The position numbers and the translations under genes were made by a program. Shown piece after piece: positions 29,120 through 56,457 of a DNA stretch of 64,000 nt (positions are counted from its first letter, which is position 1; the number at the start of each line of letters is the position of its first letter). This stretch comes from an uncultured Acidimicrobiales bacterium (GTDB lineage Bacteria > Actinomycetota > Acidimicrobiia > Acidimicrobiales > Ilumatobacteraceae). The stretch spans positions 14,506 through 78,505 of the forward strand of contig CAWCTH010000005.1 of assembly GCA_963798445.1 (NCBI GenBank). Reading direction: 5' to 3'. The notes below the pieces were generated by a model. The model worked only from the letters and a program-made list of their open reading frames with translations, had not been told where the DNA came from and did not search any database.

Positions 29120-29588
29120 ATGCAGGGTGACCCGGCCGTTCTCGAGCTGCTCAATGATGTGCTGACGGCGGAGCTCACGGCGGTGAACCAGTACTTCCTC
29201 CACGCCAAGCTGTGCCACCACTGGGGCTACGAGCGGCTGGCGGAGACGATCCGCTCCGAGTCGATCGACGAGATGCGTCACGTGGAGCGCCTCACCGACC
29301 GGATCCTGTACCTCGACGGCATGCCGAACTACCAGCGACTCTTTTCGGTCGCGCGTCGGTGAATCGGTGCGGGAGCAGTTTGAGCTGGACCTGCAGACCG
29401 AGCGGGAGGCCATCAAGCGGCTGAACGACGGCATCGCCGCCTGCGTGGCGGTGGGCGACAACGGCAGCCGGGAGCTGCTGGCGCACATCCTGGTCGACGA
29501 GGAGGAGCACGCCGACTGGCTGGAGACGCAGCTCGAGGCCATCGGCCAGATCGGTATCGAGAACTACCTCGGCGAACAGCTCCACTGA
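29120..29588 (+). pseudogene. bfr: bacterioferritin, split by a 1-nt insertion near 29351
   Basis: '[30 protein letters not shown]...[12 protein letters not shown]...NYQRLFSV' continues in the next frame. The continuation is '[25 protein letters not shown]...[13 protein letters not shown]'. Confidence 0.85.
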
Positions 29589-35036: not shown

Positions 35037-36176
35037 ATGCCGGATTTCGCCGCCTACGTGATCGTGGGGGGCGTCGCCGCCGGTGTCACGTTGATCGCGA
35101 CGCCGCTGGTCCGGCTGCTCGCCATTCGCGCCGGCTGGGTCGTGCAGCCCGACGAGCGCAGGGTCCACACCCAGCCCACGGCCGCCGTCGGTGGCGTCGC
35201 CATGTTCCTGGGGTTCCTGGCGGCCATGGTCCTGGCCTGGAACATGGACCGGTTCAACCCCATCTTCGTCAACAACTCCGAGCCCCTCGGGGTGGTGCTC
35301 GGCGCCATCGTGATGTTCGCCGTCGGGCTGGCCGACGACCTCAAGAAATCGACGACCCACGACGGCTTGGCCGAGGGCATCTCGGCGCCGGCCAAGGTGA
35401 CGGGGATGGTGGTGGCCGGCGCCGTGCTCGCCTACTTCGGCGTCACGATGTTCTACTTCCGCATCCCGTTCTTCGACGTGGTGACCATCGGCCAGGACCT
35501 GGCTCCGCTGGTGACCGTGCTCTGGCTCATCGGGCTGGCCAACGCCATCAACCTGATCGACGGGCTCGACGGTCTGGCCGCCGGCATCGTCGCCATCGCG
35601 TCGGGCACGTTCTTCCTCTACGGCCAGCGACTGGACAAGCTGGGGCTGCTCGCGCAGCCCAACATCGGCCCCCTCGTCGCCATCATCGTGCTCGGCATCT
35701 GCCTGGGGTTCCTGCCCCACAACTTCAATCCGGCGCGGATCTTCATGGGCGACTCGGGCGCGCTGCTGCTGGGGCTGTTGATGGCGGCGTCGACGACGGT
35801 GGTGGGCGGCCGGGCCGATCCCAACCAGCCGTTCTCCGGTCAGACGTACTTCTTCTTCGCCCCGCTGTTCATCCCACTGGTCATCCTCGGCGTGCCCATC
35901 GTGGACACGGTGTTCGCCATCATCCGCCGGGCGACCCGGCGCTCGGGTGTCACCACCGCCGATAAGGGCCACCTCCACCACCGTCTGATGGCGCTCGGTC
36001 ATGGCCAGCGGCGCAGCGTGCTCATCCTGTGGTCGTGGACGGCGATCCTGTCCGGTTTCGTGCTGTATCCCGCTTACACCGGCGAAGGCAATGGTGTGGT
36101 GCCGCTCGGCATCGCCGCGCTGGGTCTGGCGCTGTTCACCGTGCTGCACCCGCAGCTACGGAGGGCGCGACGCTGA
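35037..36176 (+). CDS. wecA: polyprenyl-phosphate HexNAc-1-phosphate transferase (MraY/WecA glycosyltransferase family 4)
   Basis: 379 aa and polytopic. 'NAINLIDGLDGLAAG' and 'FMGDSGALLLG' are the family hallmarks. Its position after prfA-prmC...glyA matches rfe/wecA in other actinobacteria. Confidence 0.85.
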   Translation: MPDFAAYVIVGGVAAGVTLIATPLVRLLAIRAGWVVQPDERRVHTQPTAAVGGVAMFLGFLAAMVLAWNMDRFNPIFVNNSEPLGVVLGAIVMFAVGLADDLKKSTTHDGLAEGISAPAKVTGMVVAGAVLAYFGVTMFYFRIPFFDVVTIGQDLAPLVTVLWLIGLANAINLIDGLDGLAAGIVAIASGTFFLYGQRLDKLGLLAQPNIGPLVAIIVLGICLGFLPHNFNPARIFMGDSGALLLGLLMAASTTVVGGRADPNQPFSGQTYFFFAPLFIPLVILGVPIVDTVFAIIRRATRRSGVTTADKGHLHHRLMALGHGQRRSVLILWSWTAILSGFVLYPAYTGEGNGVVPLGIAALGLALFTVLHPQLRRARR

Positions 36177-37653
36177 CGTCGTGATCATCGCCGCTGCGAT
36201 GTTCCCGAACGGTGGCGGCGGTGATGCCCAGTAACAGCCAGAAGTACGCGTCCATCGGGAACAGCTCGAGGTAGGTGGCGAAGAACATCGAGAAGATGGT
36301 GGCCGCGAGGTACGCGGTGATGCCGATGCCGAGCGCCGAGTCCCGCTTGTCCTTGACCCGCTCGAGTCGCCGGCTCTCTCGCACGGCACCGAACAGGATG
36401 CGGATCAGGAACCACAGCCCGATAACACCGAGCTCGACCACCGTCTTGAAGTAGTAGTTGTCGGGCTGGTACACGCCGTTGGCGCCGAGGATGGGCGTGT
36501 ACACGTCCGAGTCGGGTTGGCTCAGGTCGATGCCGAACGCCGCGGCCTGCTCTTGCACGCTCTGGCCGTACGAGCGCGCCTTGGCGGCGCCCGTCTCGCC
36601 CACGCCGATGCCGAGCGGGTGATCGAGCACGCCGTCGATGTTCTCGGTCCAGTTGGCCGAGCGGGCTTTCGTGGAGTCCGACGACAGTGCCGACGTCGCG
36701 CTGGAACCCGGGATGAAGAAGATGGCCACCAGGCCCAGCGGCACCAATACGGCGATGACGGAGTGGAACCGGCGGATGCCGATGTACAGCAGACCGACGA
36801 TCAGACCGAGCATGGCGGTGCGCACGATGCTGGTGACGAGTCCGGCTACGAGCAGCGGTGTCGCCAGGAGGAACAGACGATTGCGGAGGCGAGTCAGATC
36901 GGCCAATGCGACCGGCACACATATGACGATCACCATCATCAGGAAGAAGCCGAACGAGAAGGGCAGAGCGAACGTGCTGATCGAGCGAAGGAAGCCGCCA
37001 TTGAAGCGCAGGACGGAGTTGTAGGCGTAGCCGAGCTGGTTGAGGCGCTCGTGGCCGATGAGCTGTTGAGCGACGCCGTAGGCCGCCGTCAGCACGCCGA
37101 GCCCCATGAGGATGCTCACGAACCGGTCGCGGTCGCGCTTGTCGAGGGGACAGCGCCAGGCGGCGTAGGCGAGCGCGAGGTACACGAAGTTGAGCTTCAG
37201 CCCCCAGAACGCCGCCTTCGACTGATGGATGCCGAACCAGGTCACGGACAGCACGACGAAGGCGACGAGCCACCAGAACCAGTCGGGCTTGGCCCGCCGG
37301 GCCACGCGCTGGATGCTGAAGAACGCGCAGATCGCCGTGAAGACGGCCAGCCCTTCCTTCCACGACGCCACCTGGCCGTCGATGCCGAGCGGCAGCCGCA
37401 AGCCGTCGAGCGGCAGGAGGGCGACCGCTAGGAGCACGCCTCGTTGCGGCCGTCTGGCGATCCACACCGCGGCGGCGATGCCGACCAACGCGACCAGCAT
37501 CAGGGGCAACCGTCCGGCCAGCGTGGCGCCAATGACGGCCAGCGTGATGAGGGCACATAGGCCGAATGGCCCATGCTTCGCAAACAGGCCGCGCGACCCT
37601 GGGAGGGTCCCATGATGTGCAGTAGTCTTTTCCCACACGGGCGGCTCCACCAC
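36136..37653 (-). CDS. O-antigen ligase / Wzy-type polymerase-like membrane protein
   Basis: 505 aa with about 10-12 TM helices. A large loop with 'HPLGIGVGETG' lies late in the protein, as in Wzy_C-domain proteins. Confidence 0.65.
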   Translation of the reverse strand: MVEPPVWEKTTAHHGTLPGSRGLFAKHGPFGLCALITLAVIGATLAGRLPLMLVALVGIAAAVWIARRPQRGVLLAVALLPLDGLRLPLGIDGQVASWKEGLAVFTAICAFFSIQRVARRAKPDWFWWLVAFVVLSVTWFGIHQSKAAFWGLKLNFVYLALAYAAWRCPLDKRDRDRFVSILMGLGVLTAAYGVAQQLIGHERLNQLGYAYNSVLRFNGGFLRSISTFALPFSFGFFLMMVIVICVPVALADLTRLRNRLFLLATPLLVAGLVTSIVRTAMLGLIVGLLYIGIRRFHSVIAVLVPLGLVAIFFIPGSSATSALSSDSTKARSANWTENIDGVLDHPLGIGVGETGAAKARSYGQSVQEQAAAFGIDLSQPDSDVYTPILGANGVYQPDNYYFKTVVELGVIGLWFLIRILFGAVRESRRLERVKDKRDSALGIGITAYLAATIFSMFFATYLELFPMDAYFWLLLGITAATVREHRSGDDHDVSVAPSVAAGAAR

Positions 37654-37705
37654 CGCAGTGTACTAGCCCCTCATTTCGGCGGCATTCTCACGAACAAGGA
37701 GCGGC

Positions 37706-40075
37706 GTGACGTTCAACGAACATGTCCGCAGCATCAAAGACCACGGTTACGCACTCGTTGGGTTGAGTCTGCTGGCGGCGATCCTCGTGTTCCTCGCCGC
37801 GTCGCTGCGCGATAGCACCTACACCACCTCCGCCGTCATCGGCGTGACCCCCGGACCGGTCATCGCCGGCGATGCCGTTGCCGTCGACACCGTGTCGTTC
37901 ACGGCGAGCCGCTATCAGCGCCTCGTGAACAGCGATGCGGTGCTCACCAGCGGCGCCGCCGTTGCTGACCAAGGCACCACCCTGCAGGACATGCGAGAGC
38001 GAGTGAGCGCGTCAACGACGCCGGGATCGGGCACGTTGACCGTCACCGTGAAGGGCTCCAGCGCCGACGAGACCGCTCGTGTCGCAGCGGCCGTGGCCAA
38101 CGCCACCATCGCGCAGGGAAAGACCGACCAGGAGGCACAGCGCACCGACAGCCTCGCCGCACTTCGCGCCGACCGCGACGCGTTGCGGGCGCAGCTCGAC
38201 CAGACCGCCGTCGATGCCCCCGAACGGGCGCAGATCGACGCGCAGTACCAGGCCGCACTCTCCGACATCGCCACCCAGCAGGCGGCTCCCTACGACGCCG
38301 CGCAGCTGCTCCAGACACCGGAGATACCGAAGGGGCCAGTAGGCCCGGGCTCGAAGAGCCTCGCCATCTTCGCCTTCCTCGCCGCCCTCGTCCTGGGTGG
38401 CGAGGGCCTGGTGATCTGGGACCGCAACTACGCCAAGAAGACCAGGAAGCGCGAAGGGCGGGTGATCTGGGACCGCAACTCCGGCAAGAAGGCCGACCAG
38501 GCGACGGTCCAGGTGCCGTTCGAGGAGATCACGCTGGTGTCCGACGAGGAAGCCGAACGCAAAGCTCGGCGCCGTGCCGTCACCATCGTGGCGGCCAAGC
38601 CACCGTCGGTACGGGGTGACCCGCTGCTGGCGGCGGCGTACGACGACGACGAGGCTGACGACGATGACGTACCGATCACGTCGGCGGTCGACGGGGGCAC
38701 GGATGGCAGCGACCGCGACCGAGACGGTGACTTCGTCGAAGTGCCGCTGGTGCCCCTGGTTGATCTGGCTGACACCATCTTGGCCGAGGCGCTGGATGGT
38801 CATCGGCTGATCGGCATCGTCGGTTCAGGCGATCTGGCCGCCACGAACGACGTTGCTCTGGCGCTCGGGCAGAAGCTCGCCGCCGAGGGTTTGAGCACGC
38901 TGGTGGTCGAAGGCGACATGTCGCATCCGGCCATCGCGTCCAGGTTGTCCACCCGCGCCCAGTCCGGCCTCAGCAACGTGTTGGCCGGTGGGGCACCGCT
39001 CGAGCGCACCCGCCGCCAGACAACGGTGGAGGGTCTCTACGTCCTGCCGGCTGGCCGTTCCGTCGAGCGCCCCCGGGTCCTGATCGGGTCCGACGAGTTG
39101 CAGCGGGCGTTGTCGAACAGCTCCAGCGACGTCGTGCTGGTCACCATGCCGCCGTCGATGCCACCGGCCGATCGCGATGCCATCGCCAGCCAACTCGACC
39201 GGGTGGTGCTCTTGGTTCGCGACGGCCGCCGCCGTGACGAGCAGGTGCGCACTGCGACCGACGAGGTCGGTGCGCTGAACAACATCCTGCTGGCCGTGGG
39301 GTTGGTCGATGTCGTGCCCGCCATCGAGCTGGAGATCATCGGCCGCAAGAGCGAGCGTCCCCCGGAGCCTCGCGGCCCGAGCCCGGTGATGACGTCGGGC
39401 GCCGCTCGGACATCTGCGGTGCACGACGAGGCACGGGTCGCCGAGCCGGTGGTGGAGGAGCCGATGGTCGAGTCGGCACCGGTGGACGAGCCGTCGTCGG
39501 AACCGACGTGGTTGCACCGGTCGTCGGATCTGCACTCGCCCTGGTCGGACGGGTCCTGGTCGAACGGGTCGTCCCACGACGAGCCGCTGGACGAGGCGCT
39601 CGCCGAAGCGGCGTGGTCCAAAGAGGCAGCGGCTGACGAGACGCCGGCCGACGAGACCGCGGTTGACGAGACCGCGGTCGACGAGACGCTGGCCGATGAG
39701 GCCGCGGCTGACGAGACGATCGCCGAAGAGACGCCGGTCGAGGAAGCCTCCGTGGAGGACGACTTCATCGAGGACGCGACGCCTGTCGAGGAGCCATGGT
39801 CGCCGAACGGATCGGCGCACGAGGAGACGGCACGGGATCACGAGTCGCCCTCCGAGGACGAGACGGCTCGTGAGGACGAGACGCCGACCGACTACGAGAC
39901 GCCTCGCGATGACGAGACGCCGACCGACTACGAGACGCCGAGCGACGACCAGACGTCTAGCGACGACCAGACGTCCTGGGACGCCGAGTCGGCACCGGAC
40001 GACTCGCACTCGACGAACGGCCATCACCACCCGGCCGAGCAGTCGCCGTACGACGAATCCATGCCGCAGTCGTAG
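37706..40075 (+). CDS. Wzz-like chain-length-determinant domain fused to a BY-kinase-like domain with degenerate Walker motifs and an acidic repeat tail
   Basis: GTG start after AAGGAG. TM1 is 'LVGLSLLAAILVFLAA', followed by a coiled periplasmic-type segment and TM2 'LAIFAFLAALVLGG'. The domain 'LIGIVGSGDLAATNDVALALGQKLAAEGLSTLVVEGDMSHP...VLPAG...VVLVTMPP...LLVRDG' is colinear with CpsD/Wzc-type kinases but lacks GK[ST]. The tail from about aa 620 is D/E/T-rich. Confidence 0.75.
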   Translation: MTFNEHVRSIKDHGYALVGLSLLAAILVFLAASLRDSTYTTSAVIGVTPGPVIAGDAVAVDTVSFTASRYQRLVNSDAVLTSGAAVADQGTTLQDMRERVSASTTPGSGTLTVTVKGSSADETARVAAAVANATIAQGKTDQEAQRTDSLAALRADRDALRAQLDQTAVDAPERAQIDAQYQAALSDIATQQAAPYDAAQLLQTPEIPKGPVGPGSKSLAIFAFLAALVLGGEGLVIWDRNYAKKTRKREGRVIWDRNSGKKADQATVQVPFEEITLVSDEEAERKARRRAVTIVAAKPPSVRGDPLLAAAYDDDEADDDDVPITSAVDGGTDGSDRDRDGDFVEVPLVPLVDLADTILAEALDGHRLIGIVGSGDLAATNDVALALGQKLAAEGLSTLVVEGDMSHPAIASRLSTRAQSGLSNVLAGGAPLERTRRQTTVEGLYVLPAGRSVERPRVLIGSDELQRALSNSSSDVVLVTMPPSMPPADRDAIASQLDRVVLLVRDGRRRDEQVRTATDEVGALNNILLAVGLVDVVPAIELEIIGRKSERPPEPRGPSPVMTSGAARTSAVHDEARVAEPVVEEPMVESAPVDEPSSEPTWLHRSSDLHSPWSDGSWSNGSSHDEPLDEALAEAAWSKEAAADETPADETAVDETAVDETLADEAAADETIAEETPVEEASVEDDFIEDATPVEEPWSPNGSAHEETARDHESPSEDETAREDETPTDYETPRDDETPTDYETPSDDQTSSDDQTSWDAESAPDDSHSTNGHHHPAEQSPYDESMPQS
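38410..38480 (+). repeat. 51-nt in-frame tandem duplication (20-nt perfect cores GGTGATCTGGGACCGCAACT at 38410 and 38461)
   Basis: Read directly. It encodes 'VIWDRNYAKKTRKREGR' followed by 'VIWDRNSGKK', just after TM2. Confidence 0.85.
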
Positions 40076-40089: not shown

Positions 40090-41295
40090 GTGCGCGTCCT
40101 CATGCTGTCGAGCCTGTGGCCGCCCGCGGTGCTCGGCGGCGCCGAGGTCTACGCCGAGGAGCTCAGCCGCCACTTGCAGGCCCGCGGCCATGAGGTCGGC
40201 GTTGTCACCCTCGGCGTCGAAGGCGACGACGTCGTTGCGTCGGTACCGGCGTGGCCGTACCGGCTTGACCAGTTCGCCGCCCAACCCCCGTGGAAGCGCG
40301 CCGCGTTCCATGCCATCGACATCGCCAACGTGCGGGCGCTGCGAACCGTGCTCGACGCCGTCGATCGCTTCCGGCCCGACGTCGTGCACTCGCACTCCAT
40401 CCAGGGGATGTCGGCACTGCCGTTGGGCATCTCGGCTCGTCGTGATGTCGCCCACGTGCACACCATCCACGACTACTGGCTTGTGTGCCAGCGGGCCTCG
40501 ATGACGAACCGCGAGGGGCAGTCGTGCGAGCAGCAGTGCACGCCGTGTCACGCGGTCACCGCGATCCACCGGCGTGAACTCCACGGTCGCGGCCCGCAGG
40601 TCGTGCTGTGCGTGTCCGAGGCCACCGCGCGAGAGCACGTCAGGGTGCCGGAGATCCACGAGCGCATACGTGTCCTGCGGCTGCCCGACGGCGGTCGAGC
40701 CAGGCAGCAGCGGCGCGCCGTCGGGGCGACGCCGGTGTTCGGCTACCTCGGTCAGCTGGCGCCGCACAAGGGCGTGTTGACGCTCATCGACGCCTTCCAG
40801 CAGTTGCCTCCCGGCAGGGCGCGCCTGCGCATCGCCGGTCGAGGCTCGGTGGAGGCGGCGGTGGCCGCCCGGGCCGGCGGCGACATCGACTACGTCGGCT
40901 TCGTCGACGCGGCGGCCAAGGCGGACTTCCTGGAGTCGTTGGACTGCCTCGTGGTGCCGTCGGAGTGGCGCGAGCCGGGAGCCTTGGTGGTCAGCGAGGC
41001 GAAGGCCGAGCTGCTACCCGTCATCGGCGCTCGCATCGGCGGCATTCCTGAAGTCGTCCCAGCGTCGTGCGCCGACCTGCTGTTCACCCCGGGCGATGCC
41101 GGCGACCTGGTCCGGTCGCTCGCCCTGTTCGGCGCCGACCCGACCCGCTTTGCCGTGACGCCCGGTATCGGCGGCGGATGGGACGGGCACGTCGACGGCG
41201 TGGAGCACGCCTACAGGGACGCTCTGGACCTCGCCGGCGCCTCCGCGTGGGCCACGGCACCCATGCCGGTCTCGTCGACCGGCTCCAAGCCGTAG
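40090..41295 (+). CDS. GT4-family (GT-B) glycosyltransferase
   Basis: 'MRVLMLSSLWPPAVLGGAEVYAEEL', 'HSHS', and a C-terminal 'PSEWREPGALVVSEAKAELLPVIGARIGGIPEVV' (E-x7-E-like region). Confidence 0.8.
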   Translation: MRVLMLSSLWPPAVLGGAEVYAEELSRHLQARGHEVGVVTLGVEGDDVVASVPAWPYRLDQFAAQPPWKRAAFHAIDIANVRALRTVLDAVDRFRPDVVHSHSIQGMSALPLGISARRDVAHVHTIHDYWLVCQRASMTNREGQSCEQQCTPCHAVTAIHRRELHGRGPQVVLCVSEATAREHVRVPEIHERIRVLRLPDGGRARQQRRAVGATPVFGYLGQLAPHKGVLTLIDAFQQLPPGRARLRIAGRGSVEAAVAARAGGDIDYVGFVDAAAKADFLESLDCLVVPSEWREPGALVVSEAKAELLPVIGARIGGIPEVVPASCADLLFTPGDAGDLVRSLALFGADPTRFAVTPGIGGGWDGHVDGVEHAYRDALDLAGASAWATAPMPVSSTGSKP

Positions 41296-42341
41296 AGCTG
41301 CCGTAGGGCCGAGTCCTGCGACGTGGCCGCCGTCCGGGACACGAACTCGGCCGATTCCTTCATGGCGCTGCGCCAGCGCTCGAGGTCGTCGAGCGCCAGC
41401 ACCTGTTGCGCCATGTCGATCGGGGTGGCGGCGAGGCGTTCCACGCCGGCGTGGCGTACGGGCGCGATGTCGCGCGCCACGATCGGCAGACCCACGGTGG
41501 CCGCTTCGAGCACGGTCACCGGGTTGCCCTCCCATGCCGCGGTGTGGACGTACGCGTGGGCGCCGGCCAGCTCCCTGAGCACCGTCTCCCGAGGCTGCCA
41601 TCCGGTCACCGTCACGCCGCTGTCGCGCAGTAGCTGCTCGAGGGGCTCGTCGCCGCCACCGACCCACCGCCACTCGCGGTTGCCGCCGAGCAGCCGCGCA
41701 TCGCGCGCCGCGGCAGCGAAGAACGCCGGATCCTTCTGCGGCCGGATGCGACCCACGGCAACGACCGGTCCACCGTCGGCTTCGGCACTCGTGATGAGGT
41801 CGAGCGGCAGCTGGACGTGGTGAGGAACGAGGACCACGGTGGCCGGACGAGGCAGCTTGTGGGCCAGCACCTGCTCCCAGGCACCGACGGCGGCTACGGC
41901 GTCGGTGCGGAAGGAGAGTCCGGCTTCCATGAGCCAGTAGCCGGCGCGCACGATGCCAGGGACGTCGCGACGCTGGAAGGCGTAGCAGTGCGGTGAGTAC
42001 ACGATGCGCGCGCCATAGGTGCGGCACGCGGCGCGGACGTAGCCGCCGGCATAGGACGAGTGGGCGTGAATGACGTCGGGCCGGAGTCGCTTGACCGTGC
42101 GCTGCACGGCGAGGAGCTGGGCCAACTTGCCCGACGGGAGGTCGATCAGCTCGGCCCGGCCGTGGAGCCCGTTGCCGATCTGCGAACCCGGGCGGCGGTA
42201 CGCCAGCACCACGTGCTCGACGTCAGGGAGGCTGGCGACGTAGTCGGTGAGCACCGCCGCGACACCGCCGCCGTACGCCTCCACGACGTGAAGAACGAGG
42301 GGCTTGGTGCGACCGATCTTGGGGGGACGAGATGTGCTCAT
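41211..42341 (-). CDS. GT4-family (GT-B) glycosyltransferase
   Basis: 'LVLHVVEAYGGGVAAV', 'IHAHSSYAGG', and C-terminal 'HTAAWEGNPVTVLEAATVGLPIVARDI'. Confidence 0.8.
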   Translation of the reverse strand: MSTSRPPKIGRTKPLVLHVVEAYGGGVAAVLTDYVASLPDVEHVVLAYRRPGSQIGNGLHGRAELIDLPSGKLAQLLAVQRTVKRLRPDVIHAHSSYAGGYVRAACRTYGARIVYSPHCYAFQRRDVPGIVRAGYWLMEAGLSFRTDAVAAVGAWEQVLAHKLPRPATVVLVPHHVQLPLDLITSAEADGGPVVAVGRIRPQKDPAFFAAAARDARLLGGNREWRWVGGGDEPLEQLLRDSGVTVTGWQPRETVLRELAGAHAYVHTAAWEGNPVTVLEAATVGLPIVARDIAPVRHAGVERLAATPIDMAQQVLALDDLERWRSAMKESAEFVSRTAATSQDSALRQLYGLEPVDETGMGAVAHAEAPARSRASL

Positions 42342-42557
42342 GAGTTAGGCCTGCTCCAAGAGACACGCCACGTGCCGCCCGCACTCGTGGTTGTTGCGTG
42401 AGGACAATACCGGACTGATTCCTTGGGTGAGGAGTTGTGCGCGAAGGTCACATGCGGGTGTCGGGGGAACCCGTTCCCGCCGACATGCGCCGACGAGGCT
42501 CCGCTACGGTACGGGTTGCGGGCGCACCAGCGAGTGTCATGCCAGGTGGAGGAAATC

Positions 42558-43751
42558 ATGTCAAAGCCGACCTCTCGACGCGCCCAGCGGCCGCTCAGGC
42601 TGGGACTGGGTGCGTTCGGCCTGGTCGCCATCATCTTGGCCGTGGTGTTCGCCGGCGGACCAGCGCTGCACCGCTTGGTGACAGGCGCCAAGGCGGTGTC
42701 CTCGATCGATGCGTCCGACGCGAAACGAGCAGTGCGCTTCGGGCCGCGGCGGGCGGGCGGTGGCGCCACGGTGGGCCAGACCATCGGCGGTATCGCCAAC
42801 GCCGCTCAGTTCGTGTTCTACGACGATGCCACCTTGAACCGTGAGCTCGACGGCATTCAGAACACCGGTGCCGGTTGGGTGCGCTTCGACTTCCTGTGGA
42901 CGGCCATCGAGCCCGACAACAACCAGTGGAGCTTCGAGCAGTACGACAAGGTCGTGGCGGCGGTCCGCAGCCGTGGTCTGCAGATCCTGGGCGAGCTGGA
43001 CTTCACGCCGCCGTGGGCCCGGGCGGCGAGTTGCACCTCGAGCGACAAGTGCCCGCCCGGCAACATGGCCGAGTGGCAGGAGTTCCTCCGCACCACGGTG
43101 ACGCGCTACAAGGCCAGCGTCTCGCACTGGGAGATCTGGAACGAGCCCAACCTCCGCGGCTTCTGGGCGTCGGGACCCGACCCGGCCGCGTATACCGAAC
43201 TGCTCAAGGCGTCGTACCCGGCCGTGAAAGAGGCCGACCCGAACGCCGTGGTGATCACCGGGGGTCTCGCACCAGCAGGTGTTCGGGACGCCGATCGTTA
43301 CCCGCCGCTCGACTTCTTGAAGGGCATGTACGCCGCTGGTGCGCAGGGATCCTTCGATGCCTTCGGCATGCATCCGTACACCTACCCCTTCACGCCCGAT
43401 GAGCCGGCGGTCTACAACAACTTCGCCAACCTCGGCCTGTACTACGACGTCATGGTGGCCAACGGTGATCAGGCCAAGCAGGTCTGGTCCACCGAAGCCG
43501 GCGCGCCGACCGGTACGTACGTGAGCAGCGACCGGCGGGCCGTCTCCGAGGCCCAGCAGGCGCTCACGGCCAAGCGCATCTACGAGATCGCCGCACAGCG
43601 GCCGTGGATGGGTCCGGTGTTCTGGTTCTGCTTCCGCGACTACGGCCCGAACCTGGGCGACATCGAGCAGAACTTCGGCATCCTGCGCAACGACTGGTCG
43701 CCGAAGCCGGCCTACGACGCTTTCGTGACGTCCATGGAGCTTCCGATCTGA
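42558..43751 (+). CDS. membrane-anchored clan GH-A (GH5/GH39-like) glycoside hydrolase
   Basis: ATG at 42558 follows GGAGGA. N-terminal TM helix 'LGLGAFGLVAIILAVVFAGG'. 'HWEIWNEPN' is the acid/base NEP motif and 'WSTEAG' is the nucleophile context. Confidence 0.75.
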   Translation: MSKPTSRRAQRPLRLGLGAFGLVAIILAVVFAGGPALHRLVTGAKAVSSIDASDAKRAVRFGPRRAGGGATVGQTIGGIANAAQFVFYDDATLNRELDGIQNTGAGWVRFDFLWTAIEPDNNQWSFEQYDKVVAAVRSRGLQILGELDFTPPWARAASCTSSDKCPPGNMAEWQEFLRTTVTRYKASVSHWEIWNEPNLRGFWASGPDPAAYTELLKASYPAVKEADPNAVVITGGLAPAGVRDADRYPPLDFLKGMYAAGAQGSFDAFGMHPYTYPFTPDEPAVYNNFANLGLYYDVMVANGDQAKQVWSTEAGAPTGTYVSSDRRAVSEAQQALTAKRIYEIAAQRPWMGPVFWFCFRDYGPNLGDIEQNFGILRNDWSPKPAYDAFVTSMELPI

Positions 43752-43759: not shown

Positions 43760-44866
43760 TCACGGGGTGTCCTTGCGGCTGGTCATCTGGTCGAACAATT
43801 TGACGAACTGGTCGGCGACGTCCACCCACGACATCTCTAGTGCCCACGTTCGGGCCTGCTGAACCACGGCGTCGTCGATGGTGTCGACGGCGGCAAGGGC
43901 GTCGCGCCACGAGCCTGGCTCGAGCGGATGGTGGACAAGGCGGGCGTGGCCACCGGCTACTTCGCGGAAGGCCGGGATATCGCTGGCCACGACCGGCACG
44001 CCGAGCTGCATGGACTCGATGACGGGTAGGCCGAAGCCTTCGTGCAGGCTGGGAATGACCACGACGGCAGCGCCGCCATAGCGCCGGCCCAGCTCGTCGT
44101 CGTCGATCCAGCCGAGGTGGCGGACGCGATCGCGGCAGCCCGATTGGTCGATCAATTGGTCGAGGTGCTGCTGTTCGGCGGCGCTGATCGGACCGGCGAG
44201 CACGAGGTCGAGATCGAGGCCCCCCAGCGCGAACGCCCGAACGAGGGTGTCCACGTTCTTGTGCGGCATGAGCGACCCGACGTACAGCGCGTAGGGGCGC
44301 TCGCCGGCAGCCGGCGTCGTGCGTTCCACGGTGGTGATGTGCGCCGATGCCGCTTCACCGATCACCGAGACCCGAGATGGATCGATCGCCACGAACGCGT
44401 CCAGGCTCATGTGGGTGAATTCACTGACGCACACGACGTGGGTCGCGGTCCGGCAGGCGCGGGGGAGCGCCGCAACGAAGCGGAGATGGCGGCCCAAGGT
44501 GTCGTAGCGGGGCGCCACGACGGCGCGCACGTCGTGCACCACCATCACCGATGGCACCGCGAGGTGGCGCAGCGTCATCTCGGGGTAGGGGATGAGTACG
44601 ACATCGGCGCCGGATCGGCTGGCGATGCGCCCGAGGTTGGCCTCCCGCCACGCCGTACGGGCGGCGAACCCCTGCGTCGCCGCGGGAGCGGCGATGATGG
44701 TGGCCGCCGGTGTGTGCGCGAACTCGGCCGGCCGGCTGGTGATGATGTCCAGGGCCACGTCGTCGCGGTCGTAGAGGGCGCCGGCCAGGCTGCGGATGTA
44801 GGTGCGGAGGCCGCCGAGGTTCGGCTTCACAACGGCGGCGTCGACGAGGATGCGCCGGCGATTCAC
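43760..44866 (-). CDS. GT4-family (GT-B) glycosyltransferase
   Basis: 'RPYALYVGSLMPHKN' and 'PSLHEGFGLPVIESMQLGVPVVASDIPAFREV'. Confidence 0.8.
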   Translation of the reverse strand: MNRRRILVDAAVVKPNLGGLRTYIRSLAGALYDRDDVALDIITSRPAEFAHTPAATIIAAPAATQGFAARTAWREANLGRIASRSGADVVLIPYPEMTLRHLAVPSVMVVHDVRAVVAPRYDTLGRHLRFVAALPRACRTATHVVCVSEFTHMSLDAFVAIDPSRVSVIGEAASAHITTVERTTPAAGERPYALYVGSLMPHKNVDTLVRAFALGGLDLDLVLAGPISAAEQQHLDQLIDQSGCRDRVRHLGWIDDDELGRRYGGAAVVVIPSLHEGFGLPVIESMQLGVPVVASDIPAFREVAGGHARLVHHPLEPGSWRDALAAVDTIDDAVVQQARTWALEMSWVDVADQFVKLFDQMTSRKDTP

Positions 44867-46386
44867 GTGGCTGCCTTCGTGCGGCCTTCGCGGCGGCTCA
44901 TGTCGCGCAGCGCGGACGTGAGCAGCGTCCGGTCCAGGATCAGCACGCCGGCGAGGTAGACGGCGACGCCGGTCACCACGCCGGCCAGGAGGACGGCACT
45001 ACGGGGGGCGACCGGGTCGAGGGCCTGCTGGACGCCGATCACCGCCGCGACCATGACGCCGCTGGCGATCAGGATGCCGCGGAGAGCCACGACTTGGCGC
45101 ATGAAGCCGAGGCCGGTGATCCGACGGACGAAGAAGAAGCTCAACGGCACCACGATCCACCCGGTCACGGTGAATGCGATCGCCACCCACACGATGCTGA
45201 AGCGCGCCGCGATGATGGACGCCGGGGCGCCGAGCGCCACCTGGGCGCCGATGACGATGAGCCCGGCGCGGGGATGCCCGCGCGACTCGCAGGCATACGC
45301 ATGCAGGCGCACGAGTGCCAGGCGCAGACCGTTCAGCGAGAGGATCTGGAGGGCGGGCACCGCGGGCAGCCATTGGGGCCCGAACACGACCAAGACGAGA
45401 TCGTGGGCGACGACGGCGGTGCCCAAGGTGAGGGGCACGTAGAGCGCGCACACGTAGCGCTCGACGCGCATCAGCGTGTCCTGGAACCGGGCGCGCTCGT
45501 CTTGCAGCGTGGCCAGCACGGGTTCGAGCACGCCGCCGATGGCGTCGAGCAGCCGATCGAGCGGGAGGAACAGGAACCGGTAGCCCAGGCTGTACTGGCC
45601 GAGGGCGTCGGCGCCGAGCTGGCGGCCCACGACGATGCTGTCGATGCTGCCCTGGGCCACGATCAGCAGCCGAGTGCCGCTGGCGGCGATGCTGAAGCCG
45701 AGCAGATCCTTCAACGTGGCGAGGTGCATCGACAGCTGTGGTCGCCACACGCCCGCACGGGTGGCGAACATCCAGGCCAGACTGGTCGCCACGAAGGACT
45801 CGGTGACGGCCATGCCGGCCAGGGACCACAGGCCGGCGTTGGCGATGGCCATCACCACACCGACGGCGGCACCGGCGGCCGTGGCGATCGTGGACGAGAG
45901 CACGAAGTCGCGAATGAAGAGGCGGCGCACCAGCATGGAGTTGGGCACGCCCTCGAAGCCCCGCAGCAGGAACATGACGCTGAGCACGCGCAGCAGCGGC
46001 CCCAGCTCGGGTTCGCTGAACCACGTGGCGATCGTGCCGGCCGTGGCGAACACGACGACCATGAGCACGAGCCCGCAGAGTCCGCTGGTCGTGAAGGCCA
46101 CGGCCACGTGGCGGCGCGTGATCTGCTGGCGCTGGACGAGGGCCTGGGCGAAGCCGAGGGCGCCGAGCAGCGTGCCGACGTTGATGACCACGAGGGCCAG
46201 CGCCATGGCGCCGAAGTCGCTCGGCGCCAGCAGCTTCGTGAGCACGATCTGCACGGCGAGGCGCACGACTTGCTGGGTGCCCTGGTTGAAGGCGCCCCAG
46301 CGCAGCCCTACCGACGCCCGCACGGCGAGCTGATCGGAGGCCGGGCGAGCGCTGAGCTCGCTGTCAGAGTCGGCGAAGGTGTGCAT
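44863..46386 (-). CDS. Wzx-type oligosaccharide flippase (MOP superfamily)
   Basis: 507 aa with about 12-14 TM helices. The N-terminus 'GLRWGAFNQGTQQVVRLAVQIVLTKLLAPSDFGAMAL' is typical of polysaccharide-biosynthesis flippases. Its stop overlaps the start of the next gene. Confidence 0.8.
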   Translation of the reverse strand: MHTFADSDSELSARPASDQLAVRASVGLRWGAFNQGTQQVVRLAVQIVLTKLLAPSDFGAMALALVVINVGTLLGALGFAQALVQRQQITRRHVAVAFTTSGLCGLVLMVVVFATAGTIATWFSEPELGPLLRVLSVMFLLRGFEGVPNSMLVRRLFIRDFVLSSTIATAAGAAVGVVMAIANAGLWSLAGMAVTESFVATSLAWMFATRAGVWRPQLSMHLATLKDLLGFSIAASGTRLLIVAQGSIDSIVVGRQLGADALGQYSLGYRFLFLPLDRLLDAIGGVLEPVLATLQDERARFQDTLMRVERYVCALYVPLTLGTAVVAHDLVLVVFGPQWLPAVPALQILSLNGLRLALVRLHAYACESRGHPRAGLIVIGAQVALGAPASIIAARFSIVWVAIAFTVTGWIVVPLSFFFVRRITGLGFMRQVVALRGILIASGVMVAAVIGVQQALDPVAPRSAVLLAGVVTGVAVYLAGVLILDRTLLTSALRDMSRREGRTKAAT

Positions 46387-46393: not shown

Positions 46394-48277
46394 TCAGCGC
46401 CCGGCGAGCGGCGGACACGACGCCAACCCGTCTGCGGAGCTTCCGTAGAGGTAGGCCGTGGTGGTGCGCAAACCGAACAAGCGGTGATGCTGGACGCGGT
46501 CGAGCAGCACGTAGCCCGGCGGCGCCGTGGATTCGCCCGAAACGATGGCGCAGCGGACGAAGTCGGGGAAGTACGCGTCGTAGGTGGCGGGCGGGTACAC
46601 GGTCAGCTCGTCCACGATGATGTCCGGACGAGCTACCCCGCGGTAGTGGTAGCCGACCCAGTCGAAGCCGGCATCCACGTTGGCCGGCGCGTAGCCCAGC
46701 TCCACCAGCCGGTCCCCGCCGTGCCAGCGCAGCTCCAGCAGGTCCTGGCTGTCGACGGCGGAGATGACCCCTAGCAGGGCGATGGGCACGAACACGATGG
46801 CGGTCAACGTCAACCGGCGGCGGTTCGGCGCCCGCTCGACGCGGTTGTCGAGGGCGAGGATCGTGAGGCCGATCACCACAGGGATCAAGTAACGATCGTA
46901 GATCGCGCGGTAAGCGAGATTGACCGCAAGAACGCCGAGGGTGCCGACGATGGTCCAGATGAGGGTGATGCGGGTGAGCGCGGTGGTCCTGGAGACCAGG
47001 TCAACAAGCTCGTGGCGGTCACGCCGGCGAGCCGCGGCCCACAGCCGCTGGAGGGCGTCGACGACACCCACCGTGGCGACGAACAGGGTGACGGCGGCCA
47101 GCACCTGCACCACGCCCCACGAAAAGTGGTCGAACAGGTGAGGGAAGGCGACGTCGGTGCCCTGGTATCCGCCGGCCTCCTGGAGCGAGTTGCCGACGAG
47201 GAGGGAGCCGTCTCGCCGGTCGAGCAGCATCCCGCCGGCGGTCACGGTGAGCGCGATCAACGCGAGACCGACGCGGCCGCGGCCCGACCGGCTCCAGCGG
47301 CGCATGACACCGATGGTGCGCCCGAACCAACCCGTCAGGATGCCGACCGGCGTGAGGAACACGGCGAGGGTGGTGGCCGCTTGGTAGAGGCGCGCCACCT
47401 GGCCGGTGATGGAGCCGCGGACGATGGCCATCGTGGGTCCCTCGAGCGGCGTCGTCAGCATGAGCACGGCCACCGCCAGCAGCACGGCAAGGCCGACGGC
47501 GACGATGACCCGGCGCTCGCGCGCTTTGGCGTTCGGGTGGGTGAACAGCGCCGCCAGCACGGCCAGCGGCGCAGCGATGGCGGCCTGTCGGATGGAGCCG
47601 CCCCACGTCCCGATCAGCGCGACCGCGACGAGGGTGGCGAGCGGCAGGCGGCCGTTGGTGGCCCACCGCTGCCAGGCCACGACGCCGAGCACCACGCACG
47701 CCAGCTGTGCCAGCAAGGCCGGCTGCTCGGTCATGTAGGTGGAGACGGTGGAGCCGAAGCCCAGCATGACCACGAGCGTCAACGGCGCGATCGGCCAGAG
47801 GGCACGGGCACGGCTGCGCCTGGCGAGGACGGCCGTGAGTACGAGCGAGCCGGCCGCCGCCAGGATGCTCAGCACCCGGAGGCCGGCCACCGAGCTGCCG
47901 GTGATCGGCGAGAGCAGCTTCGATGCCAGCAGCTGCCCGAGAAGACTGGTGTCGTTCCAACCGACGCCTTCGAGGTGGCCGTCGTCCAGGAAGCGCTGAG
48001 CGATGCGCAGGTAACCCCAATCGTCGCTGTAGGCGCGATGGATGGCACCACTGAGCACGGACCACAGGACGGCGCCGACGAAGAAGACGACGGTGGCGGC
48101 TACGGCGGCGATGCCCCAGGTGGCGTGCGCCGTCTCGTGGCGTGCGGGCCGGGTGGCGGTTGTCACCACGCCGGCATCGTCTTCGTCCGGGTCGAGCCGC
48201 GACGGGTCAGCTCGCTGCGCACGGGCGCCTGAACCTCCTCCGGTCGCCGCGGTCGGGAGCGTCGCGCGCGAGGTCAC
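46394..48277 (-). CDS. large polytopic membrane protein, putative GT-C-fold (ArnT/PMT_2-like) glycosyltransferase
   Basis: 627 aa. The first loop after TM1 carries 'YSDDWGYLRIAQRF' (an acidic DD motif, as in GT-C enzymes). It has about 11-13 TM helices and a ~150-aa C-terminal soluble domain. Confidence 0.5.
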   Translation of the reverse strand: MTSRATLPTAATGGGSGARAQRADPSRLDPDEDDAGVVTTATRPARHETAHATWGIAAVAATVVFFVGAVLWSVLSGAIHRAYSDDWGYLRIAQRFLDDGHLEGVGWNDTSLLGQLLASKLLSPITGSSVAGLRVLSILAAAGSLVLTAVLARRSRARALWPIAPLTLVVMLGFGSTVSTYMTEQPALLAQLACVVLGVVAWQRWATNGRLPLATLVAVALIGTWGGSIRQAAIAAPLAVLAALFTHPNAKARERRVIVAVGLAVLLAVAVLMLTTPLEGPTMAIVRGSITGQVARLYQAATTLAVFLTPVGILTGWFGRTIGVMRRWSRSGRGRVGLALIALTVTAGGMLLDRRDGSLLVGNSLQEAGGYQGTDVAFPHLFDHFSWGVVQVLAAVTLFVATVGVVDALQRLWAAARRRDRHELVDLVSRTTALTRITLIWTIVGTLGVLAVNLAYRAIYDRYLIPVVIGLTILALDNRVERAPNRRRLTLTAIVFVPIALLGVISAVDSQDLLELRWHGGDRLVELGYAPANVDAGFDWVGYHYRGVARPDIIVDELTVYPPATYDAYFPDFVRCAIVSGESTAPPGYVLLDRVQHHRLFGLRTTTAYLYGSSADGLASCPPLAGR

Positions 48278-48334: not shown

Positions 48335-49474
48335 TCAGAGTCGCTGCCCGGGCCGACGTGTCGTCGACGGGCGGGACAGCAGGATGGAGATGGCCGCCGC
48401 CGAGCGCGGTGCCGAGGTGCCGTCGCCGTACGGCGAGGGCATCATGGCCAACCGAGCGTGCAGCCCGGGGACGTCAGCCAGCAGCTGATCGATCCACGCG
48501 GTGATGAGCGGGCCGGGCGGGACGAGCTGTGCGAACGTGCCGAGGATCTCGGGCCGCTCGGTGGAGTTGCGCACCACCAGCACCGGCCGCTTGATGATGC
48601 TGGCCTCTTCTTGCACACCACCCGAGTCCGACACCAACAGCGCGGACTCGGCGGACAGGGCGAGGAACTCGCGGTAGCCCATCGGCTCGGCCACACGAAG
48701 GGGCTTCAGCAGACCCTCGAGGCCGAACGAGGCGATCTTGGCGCGGGTGCGGGGATGGAGCGGCAGGACCACCGGCATGGGCACCGCACCGAGCTCGGTG
48801 AGGATGACCGCCAGTGTGTCGGGATCGTCGACGTTCTCGGGACGATGGAAGGTGGTGAGCACGAAGTTGGCCGCCTCGAGCTCGTGACGAGCCAGCACGG
48901 CCAGGCGCTCGTCGGGACCGGGCAGCAGGGACGCCACCGCGTCGACGACGGTGTTGCCGGTGAGGATCACCTTGTCGCCCCCGATGCCCTCCGCCGCCAG
49001 GTTGGCGCGGTTGGTCTCGGTCGGCGCGAGGCAGAGGTCGGCGAGGTGGTCGGCCACGACCCGGTTGTGCTCTTCGGGCATGGCTCGGTCGAAGCTGCGC
49101 AACCCGGCTTCAAGGTGCACCAGGGGGATGTTGGTGGCATTGGCGGCGAGGGCACCGGCGACGGTGGCGTTCGTGTCGCCGTGGACCACCACGACCGCCG
49201 GCGGGGCGGCGTGGAACGCGGCCTCGAGGCGGGACGTGGCGTCACCGATCTGCGTGCCGCGTGAGCGACCGCCGATCTCGAGCAGGAGATCGGGCCGGCC
49301 GATGCCCAGCTCGGCCAGGAACTGGCCCGACAGCTGCTCGTCGTAGTGCTGGCCGGTGTGGACCACGCGGGCCTGCTCACCGAACAACTTCACGAGCGGC
49401 GCGACCTTGATCAGCTCCGGTCGGGTGCCCAAAACGAAAGCGATACTCTTTGGGCCCAAGCCGACAGTCACCAT
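48335..49474 (-). CDS. wecB: UDP-N-acetylglucosamine 2-epimerase (non-hydrolysing)
   Basis: 'IAFVLGTRPELIKVAPL', 'HTGQHYD', 'VVVHGDTNAT', 'HLEAGLRSFDRAMPEEHNR'. Confidence 0.9.
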   Translation of the reverse strand: MVTVGLGPKSIAFVLGTRPELIKVAPLVKLFGEQARVVHTGQHYDEQLSGQFLAELGIGRPDLLLEIGGRSRGTQIGDATSRLEAAFHAAPPAVVVVHGDTNATVAGALAANATNIPLVHLEAGLRSFDRAMPEEHNRVVADHLADLCLAPTETNRANLAAEGIGGDKVILTGNTVVDAVASLLPGPDERLAVLARHELEAANFVLTTFHRPENVDDPDTLAVILTELGAVPMPVVLPLHPRTRAKIASFGLEGLLKPLRVAEPMGYREFLALSAESALLVSDSGGVQEEASIIKRPVLVVRNSTERPEILGTFAQLVPPGPLITAWIDQLLADVPGLHARLAMMPSPYGDGTSAPRSAAAISILLSRPSTTRRPGQRL

Positions 49475-49687
49475 GCCTCTTCTCTTGACGCTTTCGAACG
49501 AGCCGCCACGAGGCCAACGTACGGCAGGAGCTGGGCGCCCGGAATGGGCCAGACGGCCCGTAGACCCCCTGGTACGTGCTCGGTACCGTCCTGTTGCGGG
49601 CCGATCCCGTCGAGCTCGGCGAAACGGCTCCCCGATCGGCCCGTCTAAGCGCGTGAAACCCTTCCCGCCCCTTCGAGAGGAGATCCA

Positions 49688-50899: not shown

Positions 50900-51927
50900 G
50901 CACGGCCGCCCCGACCAAGAAGGTCAAGATCGGCATCGTCGGCGCCGGCGGCATCGCCAAGGCGTACGCCGATCTGCTGCCCACCTCCGCCACGGCGACG
51001 TGTGTCGGGGTGGCCGACGTGAACGTCGAGGCGGCGGCGGCCATGGCCCGCGGCCTCGACTGCCCATCGTTCGCTTCGGCGCACGAGCTGGCCGCCGTGG
51101 ACGGTCTGGAAGCGGTCGTGCTGTGCACGCCGCCCGCCACCCACGTCGCGCTGGCCGAGCAGTTCGCCGACATCGGCGTGCACGTGCTGTCCGAGAAGCC
51201 CCTCGCCGTCAACCGGCACGCGGCCGCCGAGATGGCCTCCATTGCCGAGCGCCGCGGCATCTTGCTCACGATGGCCACCAAGTTCCGTTTCTGCAACGAC
51301 GTGAACCGGGCGGCTCTCATCCTGTCGTCGGGTCGCATCGGCGAGGCCCGCCTGGTCGAGAACGCGTTCACGTCGCGCGTCGACATGGGCGGGCGGTGGA
51401 ACTCCGATCCCGCCGTCTCCGGTGGCGGTGTCCTGGTTGACAACGGCACCCACTCGGTCGATCTGGTCCGCTACCTCCTCGGCCCCATCTCCGAGGTCTT
51501 GGCCGTCGAGACCAGCCGGCCGAACGGCTTCGTCGTCGATGACACGTGCCGTCTCCACCTCCGCACCGAAGCCGGCCACGATGCCCACGTCGACCTGTCG
51601 TGGAGCATCGACAAGTCGCTGAGCGACTTCCTGCGCATCTACGGCACGCTCGGCGAGATCCGGGTGGGTTGGCGCGAGTCGGCGTGGCGGCTGCACGGCG
51701 GCGACTGGGAAGTGATCGGTTCGGGCTATGCGAAGGTCCCGGCCATGGGTGGCGCCCTCGATGCCTTCTGTCTGGCCGTGCGGCGTGAGGCCCCCCTGGC
51801 GGTCAGCGTCGACGACGGCGTTGCGGCGGCGACGTGCATCGACGGCGCCTACGAGTCGTTGCGACGCGGTGGCTGGGTGAAGCTGGCCGAACTGGCGTTG
51901 GACGATCTGGAGGTCAGCGCTCGATGA
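50896..51927 (+). CDS. Gfo/Idh/MocA-family NAD-dependent sugar oxidoreductase (WbpB/GnnA-like)
   Basis: The GTG start overlaps the previous stop (GTGA). Rossmann motif 'VKIGIVGAGGIAKAY' and 'SEKPLA'. Confidence 0.85.
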   Translation: MSTAAPTKKVKIGIVGAGGIAKAYADLLPTSATATCVGVADVNVEAAAAMARGLDCPSFASAHELAAVDGLEAVVLCTPPATHVALAEQFADIGVHVLSEKPLAVNRHAAAEMASIAERRGILLTMATKFRFCNDVNRAALILSSGRIGEARLVENAFTSRVDMGGRWNSDPAVSGGGVLVDNGTHSVDLVRYLLGPISEVLAVETSRPNGFVVDDTCRLHLRTEAGHDAHVDLSWSIDKSLSDFLRIYGTLGEIRVGWRESAWRLHGGDWEVIGSGYAKVPAMGGALDAFCLAVRREAPLAVSVDDGVAAATCIDGAYESLRRGGWVKLAELALDDLEVSAR

Positions 51928-56012: not shown

Positions 56013-56024
56013 CGCGGAGGTCCG

Positions 56025-56444: not shown

Positions 56445-56457
56445 AGGAGGTCGACCG

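Follow-up and report, generated by a model that had tools for sequence, protein, structure and literature searches.

The 64,000-nt stretch of contig CAWCTH010000005.1 analysed here (the window, to which all positions refer; ~69% G+C) comes from an uncultured member of the Acidimicrobiales. At 37706-40075 it carries a gene (the focal gene) for a polysaccharide co-polymerase (PCP) of a conserved Wzx/Wzy-dependent envelope-glycan pathway, whose cytoplasmic region includes a domain with the fold of bacterial tyrosine (BY) kinases and a degenerate catalytic signature. In the textbook view, Wzy-dependent assembly of capsules and exopolysaccharides has BY-kinase cycling as its control step. The explanation which best accounts for the observations, and which is likely as a whole, is that of a PCP-2a co-polymerase whose BY-kinase-derived domain would have no ATP-dependent switching and would act as a structural module. 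Within this explanation, the pseudokinase status of the domain is highly probable from its motifs, and the scaffold mechanism, drawn by analogy with other systems, is the somewhat favoured account of its function.

The focal gene and the regions of its product, with the support for each (AF2, AlphaFold2; pLDDT, predicted local distance difference test; dN/dS, ratio of nonsynonymous to synonymous substitution rates), are:

37696-37701, + strand: Shine-Dalgarno sequence AAGGAG, 4 nt 5' of the GTG start, read directly from the sequence.
37706-40075, + strand: focal gene, 789-amino-acid (aa) PCP-2a-like co-polymerase with a probable pseudokinase domain (open reading frame, ORF; G+C at third codon positions, GC3, of 0.86; orthologue colinearity; AF2).
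37748-37804, + strand: first transmembrane helix, aa ~15-33, a hydrophobic helix inside AF2 helix 3-33.
37805-38350, + strand: extracytoplasmic Wzz/PCP-like domain, aa 34-215 (AF2 pLDDT >90; dN/dS 0.15-0.47).
38351-38419, + strand: second transmembrane helix, aa ~216-238, with basic juxtamembrane residues after it (positive-inside; AF2 and sequence).
38420-38746, + strand: variable, disordered cytoplasmic linker, aa 239-347 (pLDDT <50; 12% mean family identity).
38747-39325, + strand: BY-kinase-fold, probable pseudokinase domain, aa 348-540 (homology, AF2, Foldseek; 64% mean family identity).
39326-40072, + strand: acidic Pro/Ser/Thr-rich disordered tail without a Tyr cluster (sequence, family comparison).

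The initial annotation of this DNA singled out positions 38800-39310, which correspond to aa 366-535 of the focal protein and thus to the kinase-like domain, and proposed that this domain is colinear with tyrosine autokinases of the CpsD/Wzc/Etk type. Sequence searches and structure prediction both confirm this. NCBIfam BY-kinase models match aa ~368-531 (TIGR03018, 6.5e-16; TIGR01007, 2e-15; also the EpsG, Wzc and Etk models), with scores far under the curated cut-offs; the TIGR03018 and TIGR01007 alignments start at profile positions 53 and 37, respectively, past the oligomerisation motif (O-motif) and the P-loop. Among PDB sequences, phmmer retrieves CapB1 (5e-9), BceF, VpsO, CapB2, Etk and Wzc, with Soj and MinD ranking lower, and the family profile improves the match to BceF to 9e-13. 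An exhaustive HMMER search with the domain returns 15,488 relatives at E<=1e-3. The Pfam scan of the focal protein gives no P-loop or Wzz family and only noise (HalX, PA2201_N), so that it took the NCBIfam and PDB searches to reveal the homology. All 28 family members are likewise without hits to the Pfam P-loop NTPase families PF13614, PF01656 and PF10609, which nearly all of the canonical relatives listed carry.

The AF2 model of the domain (aa 340-560; pLDDT 91.1, predicted TM-score 0.88) has the P-loop/MinD-like fold of the BY-kinase catalytic domain and opens, as had been proposed, with a strand, a loop and a helix (strand 368-373, loop 374-379, helix from T380). In a Foldseek search of the PDB with this model, ranks 1-49 are all BY-kinase domains (Wzc, CapB, BceF, VpsO, Etk), with E values down to 4e-14 and TM-scores of ~0.73, and the next rank is Soj. 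The homology of the domain to BY-kinases is far above chance level. The label 'Mrp family chromosome partitioning ATPase' (JGI) was considered and rejected: it is a generic COG assignment, MinD and Soj fall below all BY-kinase matches, and the deviant Walker A of MinD/ParA/Mrp proteins (KGGxGK[ST]) is absent, there being no Walker A in the domain.

A second AF2 model (aa 1-560) gives the layout of the full-length protein: two transmembrane helices frame an ectodomain, made of an alpha/beta base and a long helical hairpin (helices 120-166 and 174-193, pLDDT >90), and a BY-kinase-fold domain is fused on the cytoplasmic side. Its best Foldseek matches are full-length Wzc chains (3.5e-18, ~650-750 alignment columns), which outscore matches to kinase domains alone. 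The family profile finds no Wzz match for the ectodomain among PDB sequences, and the Pfam Wzz family (PF02706) matches one orthologue, P0026; the PCP assignment is thus based on the predicted fold, the full-length Wzc matches and this one Pfam hit. As modelled, the focal protein is laid out as a PCP-2a whose ectodomain is short and of monoderm style. Just after the second transmembrane helix lies an in-frame 51-nt tandem duplication (38400-38494, + strand); its two copies are 86% identical, it repeats the peptide VIWDRN and it is absent from all 28 homologues.

The motif register is gapless from R367 to E402. It is supported by a MAFFT alignment with ~180 canonical BY-kinases, by the family profile against BceF and by the position of the AF2 helix start at T380. 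All peptides quoted in the initial annotation are present: GIVGSGDL (aa 370-377, nt 38813-38836), LVVEGDMSHP (399-408), YVLPAG (445-450), VVLVTMPP (476-483) and LLVRDG (502-507). The canonical motifs of Wzc are 533-GVSPSIGKT-541 for Walker A, 558-VLLIDCDMR-566 for Walker A' and 639-VLIDTPP-645 for Walker B (PMC9800525); the Wzc numbering is taken from that source and was placed by motif spacing rather than by direct alignment with Wzc. The corresponding remnants in the focal protein are:

38822-38848, + strand: Walker A remnant, G373-S-G-D-L-A-A379-T380-N381 (MAFFT, family profile against BceF, AF2).
38897-38923, + strand: Walker A' remnant, T-L-V-V-E402-G-D404-M-S406 (alignments).
39134-39154, + strand: Walker B remnant, V-L-V-T480-M-P-P, with the two prolines retained (alignments).

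In Walker A (GxxxxGK[ST]), the lysine is replaced by T380, the following Ser/Thr by N381 and the second glycine by A379, which bears out the proposed lack of a P-loop Lys-Ser/Thr. A pairwise HMMER alignment with CapB1 places K-S at D376-L377 and was rejected, as it needs a 4-aa gap and the T380-N381 register has three independent lines of support; under either register there is no lysine at K-[ST]. The domain contains no GK[ST], its sole lysine, K390, is a glutamate in 21 of 27 orthologues, and no lysine of the domain is conserved across these 27. A P-loop displaced elsewhere was also looked for and rejected: a regular-expression search over the whole protein finds only A133-TIAQ-G138-K139, and this GKT (aa 138-140) is extracellular, mid-helix and unconserved (K/R/Q in orthologues), so that the objection of a displaced P-loop fails. 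Moreover, an acidic residue and, usually, a proline occupy the former P-loop, which argues against phosphate binding.

Walker A' (hhhhDxDxR) has lost its arginine, replaced here by S406 and by S/T/A family-wide. D404 is retained, and E402 is invariant. The initial annotation had read this motif as degenerate from its E-G-D sequence; the sequence is as stated, E402-G-D404, but glutamate often occurs naturally at the first position in BY-kinases that have kept Walker A intact, and ~30 of the 176 nearest outgroup proteins carry it. As ExDxR is frequent in such relatives, only the change of Arg to Ser406 counts as a loss. In Walker B (hhhhDxxP), the aspartate is replaced by T480, as had been noted, and the position is S/T/A in all orthologues.

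The remaining parts of the signature are also missing. The helix aligned with the ExxRxxR O-motif, which precedes the P-loop strand, reads LADTILAEALDGH, and no family member has a Glu/Arg/Arg pattern there; the motif is present in most canonical sequences of the same alignment. There is no C-terminal Tyr cluster and no conserved Tyr in the family tails. By contrast with these losses, the structural motifs GL(S/T)xVL, LPAG and xPP, common with canonical BY-kinases, are retained. As judged from these alignments, the residue classes lost are those for ATP-Mg binding, phosphotransfer, ring contacts and the substrate tyrosines.

A word-indexed search recovers 28 close homologues (52-67% identity) and then jumps to canonical BY-kinases at E ~1e-10. 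In the exhaustive search, only ~6 cluster representatives of the family precede a jump from 6e-26 to 7e-17. With one genome per species over 185,579 species, the family is found in three genomes only, two labelled as Acidimicrobiales metagenome-assembled genomes (MAGs) and the third labelled 'bacterium' only. The degenerate motifs are common to ~28 independent sequences. Scored over 27 orthologues, T380, N381, E402, G403, M405 and P408 are invariant (27/27), D376 is D/E in 26 and a proline stands at position 378 in 24; the replacement loop D376-x-P-A-T380-N381-D382 and the segment E402-G-D404-M-x-H-P are thus invariant or nearly so, and eight arginines are nearly invariant within the domain.

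Mean identity to the window protein is 64% for the domain, 67% for the ectodomain and 12% for the linker. Nei-Gojobori dN/dS ratios are 0.14-0.37 for the domain, 0.15-0.47 for the ectodomain and ~0.7-1.3 in most linker and tail comparisons (for the linker, ~0.7-1.0 in two of the three comparisons involving the window, and 0.22 and 0.36 in two other comparisons); the true ratios are lower, as dS is probably underestimated at such GC3. The whole domain, including the replacement residues, is under purifying selection and is conserved as strongly as the ectodomain. The difference between the domain and most of the linker and tail therefore indicates a maintained pseudoenzyme rather than decay.

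The layout is shared by the nearest canonical relatives, in which ~270 N-terminal residues lead up to the kinase domain. Of the eight of these that were looked up, one carries a species name, the tyrosine autokinase of Rhodococcus wratislaviensis (WP_124389315.1, hereafter P0074). These homology searches show a domain descended from BY-kinases whose closest intact relatives share its fused layout. In a tabulation of the outgroup, 20 of the 176 nearest cluster representatives are without the Walker A K-[ST], and four (P0116, P0126, P0135 and P0175) have lost Walker A, A' and B altogether. Such losses therefore recur in sequence space, and these four may represent further, unrelated BY-pseudokinase lineages in metagenomes.

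In the tail, residues 545-789 (245 aa) have a net charge of -59 and contain three scattered Tyr (730, 742 and 782); the tails of orthologues are acidic and 76-276 aa long, most of them with 0-2 Tyr. Two tracts of tandem DNA repeats, 39630-39748 and 39824-39973 (+ strand), with periods of 15/45 nt and 18/36 nt, code for ADET/DETP acidic repeats and account for the expansion of the tail here (~245 aa, against 76-160 aa in most orthologues). The tail ends with a semi-conserved peptide, NGH...DES(L/M)PQS. About two-thirds of the family end in this way, with the form (S)ANGH(Y/H)xxxED...(F/Y)DESLPQS, and one subclade ends in F(T/Q)WPRR. The semi-conserved peptide could be a docking peptide.

The focal gene adjoins a WecA-like phosphoglycosyltransferase (PGT), a Wzy_C protein, three glycosyltransferases (GTs) and Wzx, and so belongs to a Wzx/Wzy-dependent cluster. 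Its neighbours are (GH, glycoside hydrolase; GT1 and GT4, GT families):

35037-36176, + strand: WecA/MraY-family initiating PGT (Glycos_transf_4; Pfam).
36136-37653, - strand: Wzy-like polymerase (Wzy_C), divergent from the focal gene (Pfam; synteny).
40090-41295, + strand: GT4/GT1 glycosyltransferase (Pfam).
41211-42341, - strand: GT4/GT1 glycosyltransferase (Pfam).
42423-43751, + strand: GH39/GH10-like hydrolase (Pfam).
43760-44866, - strand: GT4/GT1 glycosyltransferase (Pfam).
44863-46386, - strand: Wzx-type flippase (Polysacc_synt_3; Pfam).
46394-48277, - strand: conserved 627-aa protein with multiple transmembrane segments and no Pfam match (synteny).
48335-49474, - strand: UDP-GlcNAc 2-epimerase (Pfam).

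The gene order is the same in all five related contigs examined: prfA, prmC, (bfd, bfr), an S9 peptidase, a thiolase-like gene, glyA, the WecA-like PGT, the divergent Wzy-like gene and the focal gene, followed by GT4, GT4, the GH39/10-like gene, GT1, Wzx, the gene for the 627-aa protein and the UDP-GlcNAc 2-epimerase. The 627-aa protein, which occupies the same place in all related clusters with 57-68% identity, looks by eye like a GT-C-type membrane glycosyltransferase or polymerase. Next to it, over 48335-52550, the epimerase adjoins a DegT aminotransferase, a GFO/IDH/MocA oxidoreductase (within 50233-51927) and a hexapeptide acyltransferase (51834-52550), a set whose domain content is typical of 2,3-diacetamido-sugar synthesis (WbpB/E/D/I-like). 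A second polysaccharide block (54435-63998) holds four GT2s, an NAD-epimerase/dehydratase, a polysaccharide deacetylase and a second Wzx-type flippase (62511-63998), which extends past the end of the window.

The initial annotation saw no separate kinase or phosphatase gene in the window, and the searches made here agree. A tblastn search with 180 BY-kinases matches only 38852-39319, so that no second BY-kinase-like region is present in the 64 kb. Pfam scans of all GC3-supported ORFs, together with inspection of the gaps between genes, reveal no tyrosine phosphatase of the low-molecular-weight type (LMW-PTP) or PHP phosphatase in the window. A scan of the window for the LMW-PTP motif CxxNxxR[ST] gives two hits only, both in non-coding frames. 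In many Gram-positive bacteria an LMW-PTP gene lies between prmC and glyA; its presence was suspected here and rejected, as this gap carries bfd/bfr and a peptidase. No kinase or phosphatase is found in the flanks (+/-10 kb) of two relatives with Pfam-labelled gene calls, and no gene for an outer-membrane polysaccharide export (OPX) protein lies near the focal gene.

Taken together, these data suggest a domain that would neither bind nor turn over ATP-Mg and would not autophosphorylate, in a pathway that would run without a cycle of phosphorylation and dephosphorylation. The domain may be a nucleotide-independent structural module which stabilises or organises the membrane and ectodomain part working with the adjacent Wzy, a structural role as proposed for EcpK and HfsB; alternatively, the module could serve in the docking of cytoplasmic partners. 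The housekeeping neighbourhood (prfA-prmC...glyA-wecA) and the high conservation suggest a wall polymer that is made constitutively and could do without on/off switching. The scaffold co-polymerase without ATP switching put forward by the initial annotation is supported as far as computation allows, by the conserved replacements, the lack of an O-motif and a Tyr cluster, and the lack of a kinase or phosphatase nearby; the computational checks that the annotation had put forward all turned out in its favour.

Several points weigh against this explanation. The loss of nucleotide binding is deduced from sequence only. D404 and the conservative E402 remain, and the conserved D-x-P-A-T-N-D loop could mean a new role in ligand or partner binding. 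Loss of a motif is not always full inactivity, since some Wzc K540 and Walker B mutants retain partial activity or function (PMC9800525, Table 3). The search for a trans-acting kinase or phosphatase spans the 64-kb window and the +/-10 kb flanks of two relatives, and the case for a scaffold role is an analogy with Gram-negative systems. Finally, other genes of the window have probable frameshifts, so that the sequence may contain small errors; even so, the focal ORF is colinear with its orthologues, which come from Acidimicrobiales MAGs.

These frameshifts concern two regions. The bacterioferritin gene (29120-29588, + strand) is divided between two reading frames, with one ORF at 29120-29362 and another at 29367-29588, where the orthologue in a related contig (L007) is an intact 155-aa Ferritin-family gene with a Fer2_BFD gene just before it; the split is a probable frameshift, through either sequencing error or pseudogene formation. 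The ORF at 18619-20988 (+ strand) contains a match to the C-terminal part of a cytochrome P450 and then, in the same frame, the N-terminal part of homoserine dehydrogenase (hom, around 20.6 kb), with the remaining Homoserine_dh and ACT domains in another frame (20681-21328); the ORF at 1131-1799 holds only a C-terminal P450 fragment. The P450 and homoserine dehydrogenase fragments suggest indel errors or gene decay in the assembly.

Eukaryotic pseudokinases act as allosteric partners or substrates, and it is conceivable, though unlikely, that the focal domain is a pseudokinase of this kind, whose partner or regulator is encoded elsewhere in the genome, be it an active BY-kinase, another kinase or a phosphatase. 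The part of the genome in view is 64 kb only, and pairs of inactive and active BY-kinases have precedents (PMC3795738), a role as allosteric partner or substrate having been suggested for CapB1/CapB2. The window tail also offers three Tyr (730, 742 and 782), but these are unconserved and most orthologues have 0-2. The neighbourhoods searched, in the window and around the two Pfam-labelled relatives, yield no kinase or phosphatase, there is no ExxRxxR interface, through which rings form and Wzb docks, and EcpK has been argued to be independent of active BY-kinases (PMC12004946).

An equally low probability attaches to a remodelled pocket that would bind a new ligand or partner, such as a nucleotide-sugar, a second messenger or the protein's own C-terminal peptide, and make the domain a sensor. 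The loop D376-x-P-A-T380-N381-D382 and the segment E402-G-D404-M-x-H-P are conserved among the 27 orthologues beyond the need of a vestigial pocket, and the C-terminal NGH...DESLPQS recurs in ~2/3 of members. However, the P-loop and switch regions matter to the fold, so that their conservation is unspecific; no tool result points to a ligand, and the C-terminal peptide is missing from one subclade, in which tails end FTWPRR. A further reading, rather improbable in its entirety, would see a BY pseudokinase of independent, convergent origin in a monoderm actinobacterial lineage, in which a hard-wired polyacidic tail (~-59 here, acidic in all orthologues) takes the place of the phosphorylatable Tyr cluster and acts as a constitutive 'phosphomimic', electrostatics (Mg2+, pH or a basic partner, for example) govern the oligomerisation of the co-polymerase in place of a kinase/phosphatase cycle, and the invariant D-x-P-A-T-N-D loop is a new docking site.

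That the domain is an active, non-canonical kinase or ATPase with substitute residues, for example an arginine from elsewhere, is very unlikely. Eight near-invariant arginines and D404 would be available, and the Wzc Walker mutants of PMC9800525 (Table 3) are a reminder that some activity can persist. Here, however, the lysine, the Mg-binding Ser/Thr, the second P-loop glycine (A379), the Walker B aspartate and the A' arginine have been lost together, D376 and usually a proline lie within the P-loop, there is neither a substrate Tyr cluster nor an O-motif, and the only GKT of the protein (aa 138-140) is extracellular, mid-helix and unconserved. Finally, a decaying remnant, pseudogene or assembly artefact without function, which the frameshifted appearance of bfr (29120-29588) and hom (around 20.6 kb) might bring to mind, has a negligible probability and is already refuted by the intact 789-codon ORF with its Shine-Dalgarno sequence and GC3 of 0.86, by the same degenerate motifs in ~28 independent sequences and by the domain dN/dS of 0.14-0.37.

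The locus thus presents a fused, strongly conserved and very probable pseudokinase co-polymerase in the Actinomycetota, to which it extends the BY-pseudokinase idea. Its nearest relatives are intact BY-kinases of the same layout, the named one actinobacterial, and it lies in a core-genome envelope-glycan cluster. These three features together support a structural role of the kinase fold that is separable from catalysis. With its short ectodomain and no OPX partner, the protein would also be a natural compact construct for probing the fold without ATP. The practical and conceptual gain is incremental, since the organism has not been cultured and the concept itself was there before.

BY pseudokinases are indeed an established, though young, category (PMC12004946, PMC9800525). 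EcpK of Myxococcus xanthus (MXAN_7447) and HfsB of Caulobacter crescentus are stand-alone BY pseudokinases needed for polysaccharide synthesis, which bind the C-terminus of their PCP-2 partner and for which a phosphorylation-independent scaffold role has been proposed (PMC12004946). Like the focal domain, they have a BY-kinase fold without Walker A, A' and B motifs or a Tyr-rich tail and are associated with a PCP-2; they are separate proteins, whereas the domain is coupled to its PCP-2 by fusion here. Moreover, EcpK is missing several secondary-structure elements and has a basic helix at its end, whereas the focal domain keeps the element that precedes the P-loop strand, made of strand 348-350 and helix 351-363, and is followed by a long, acidic, disordered tail.

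Cuthbertson et al. 2009, as cited in PMC12004946, noted PCP-2 proteins to which a BY-pseudokinase domain is fused: SMc01795 of Sinorhizobium meliloti, Mlr8439 of Mesorhizobium japonicum, VV1_2305 of Vibrio vulnificus and BCETI_6000729 of Brucella ceti. As here, a transmembrane and ectodomain part and a non-catalytic BY-kinase-like domain form one polypeptide, in Wzx/Wzy-dependent pathways. These four belong to Gram-negative Proteobacteria and have large periplasmic domains and OPX partners, whereas the focal protein, from the Actinomycetota, combines a short CapA/Wzz-like ectodomain of ~180 aa with a long polyacidic tail, and its gene has no OPX gene in the vicinity. GumC of Xanthomonas campestris is a co-polymerase that is said to work independently of phosphorylation and has been called a possible 'pseudo-BY-kinase' (PMC9800525); it is described as being without a Y-cluster, and the likeness to the focal protein is by description only.

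Among active systems, the canonical PCP-2a kinases (Wzc/Etk of Escherichia coli, VpsO of Vibrio cholerae, BceF of Burkholderia cepacia) and the fused Wzc-like autokinases of actinobacteria, such as the Rhodococcus protein P0074, have the same architecture and fold. Unlike them, the focal protein is without K-[ST], the A' arginine, the Walker B aspartate, ExxRxxR, a Y-cluster and a nearby cognate phosphatase gene. The PCP-2b and BY-kinase pairs CapA/CapB of Staphylococcus aureus and CpsC/CpsD of Streptococcus pneumoniae share the short monoderm ectodomain, and CapB chains are among the best structural matches to the focal domain; each of these systems consists of two proteins, with a kinase that is active, a Tyr cluster and phosphatases of the PHP or LMW type. 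CapB1 has poor activity with its canonical motifs intact (PMC3795738).

The literature search found no actinobacterial or monoderm BY pseudokinase described as such; EcpK, HfsB, GumC and the fused pseudokinases above are all Gram-negative. The focal family probably arose independently of EcpK, HfsB and these fused pseudokinases, from actinobacterial Wzc-like kinases, since the relatives nearest to it by sequence are BY-kinases that are intact and fused in the same way, among them the Rhodococcus protein. It is a lineage-restricted addition to the known BY pseudokinases, with an unusual polyacidic tail.

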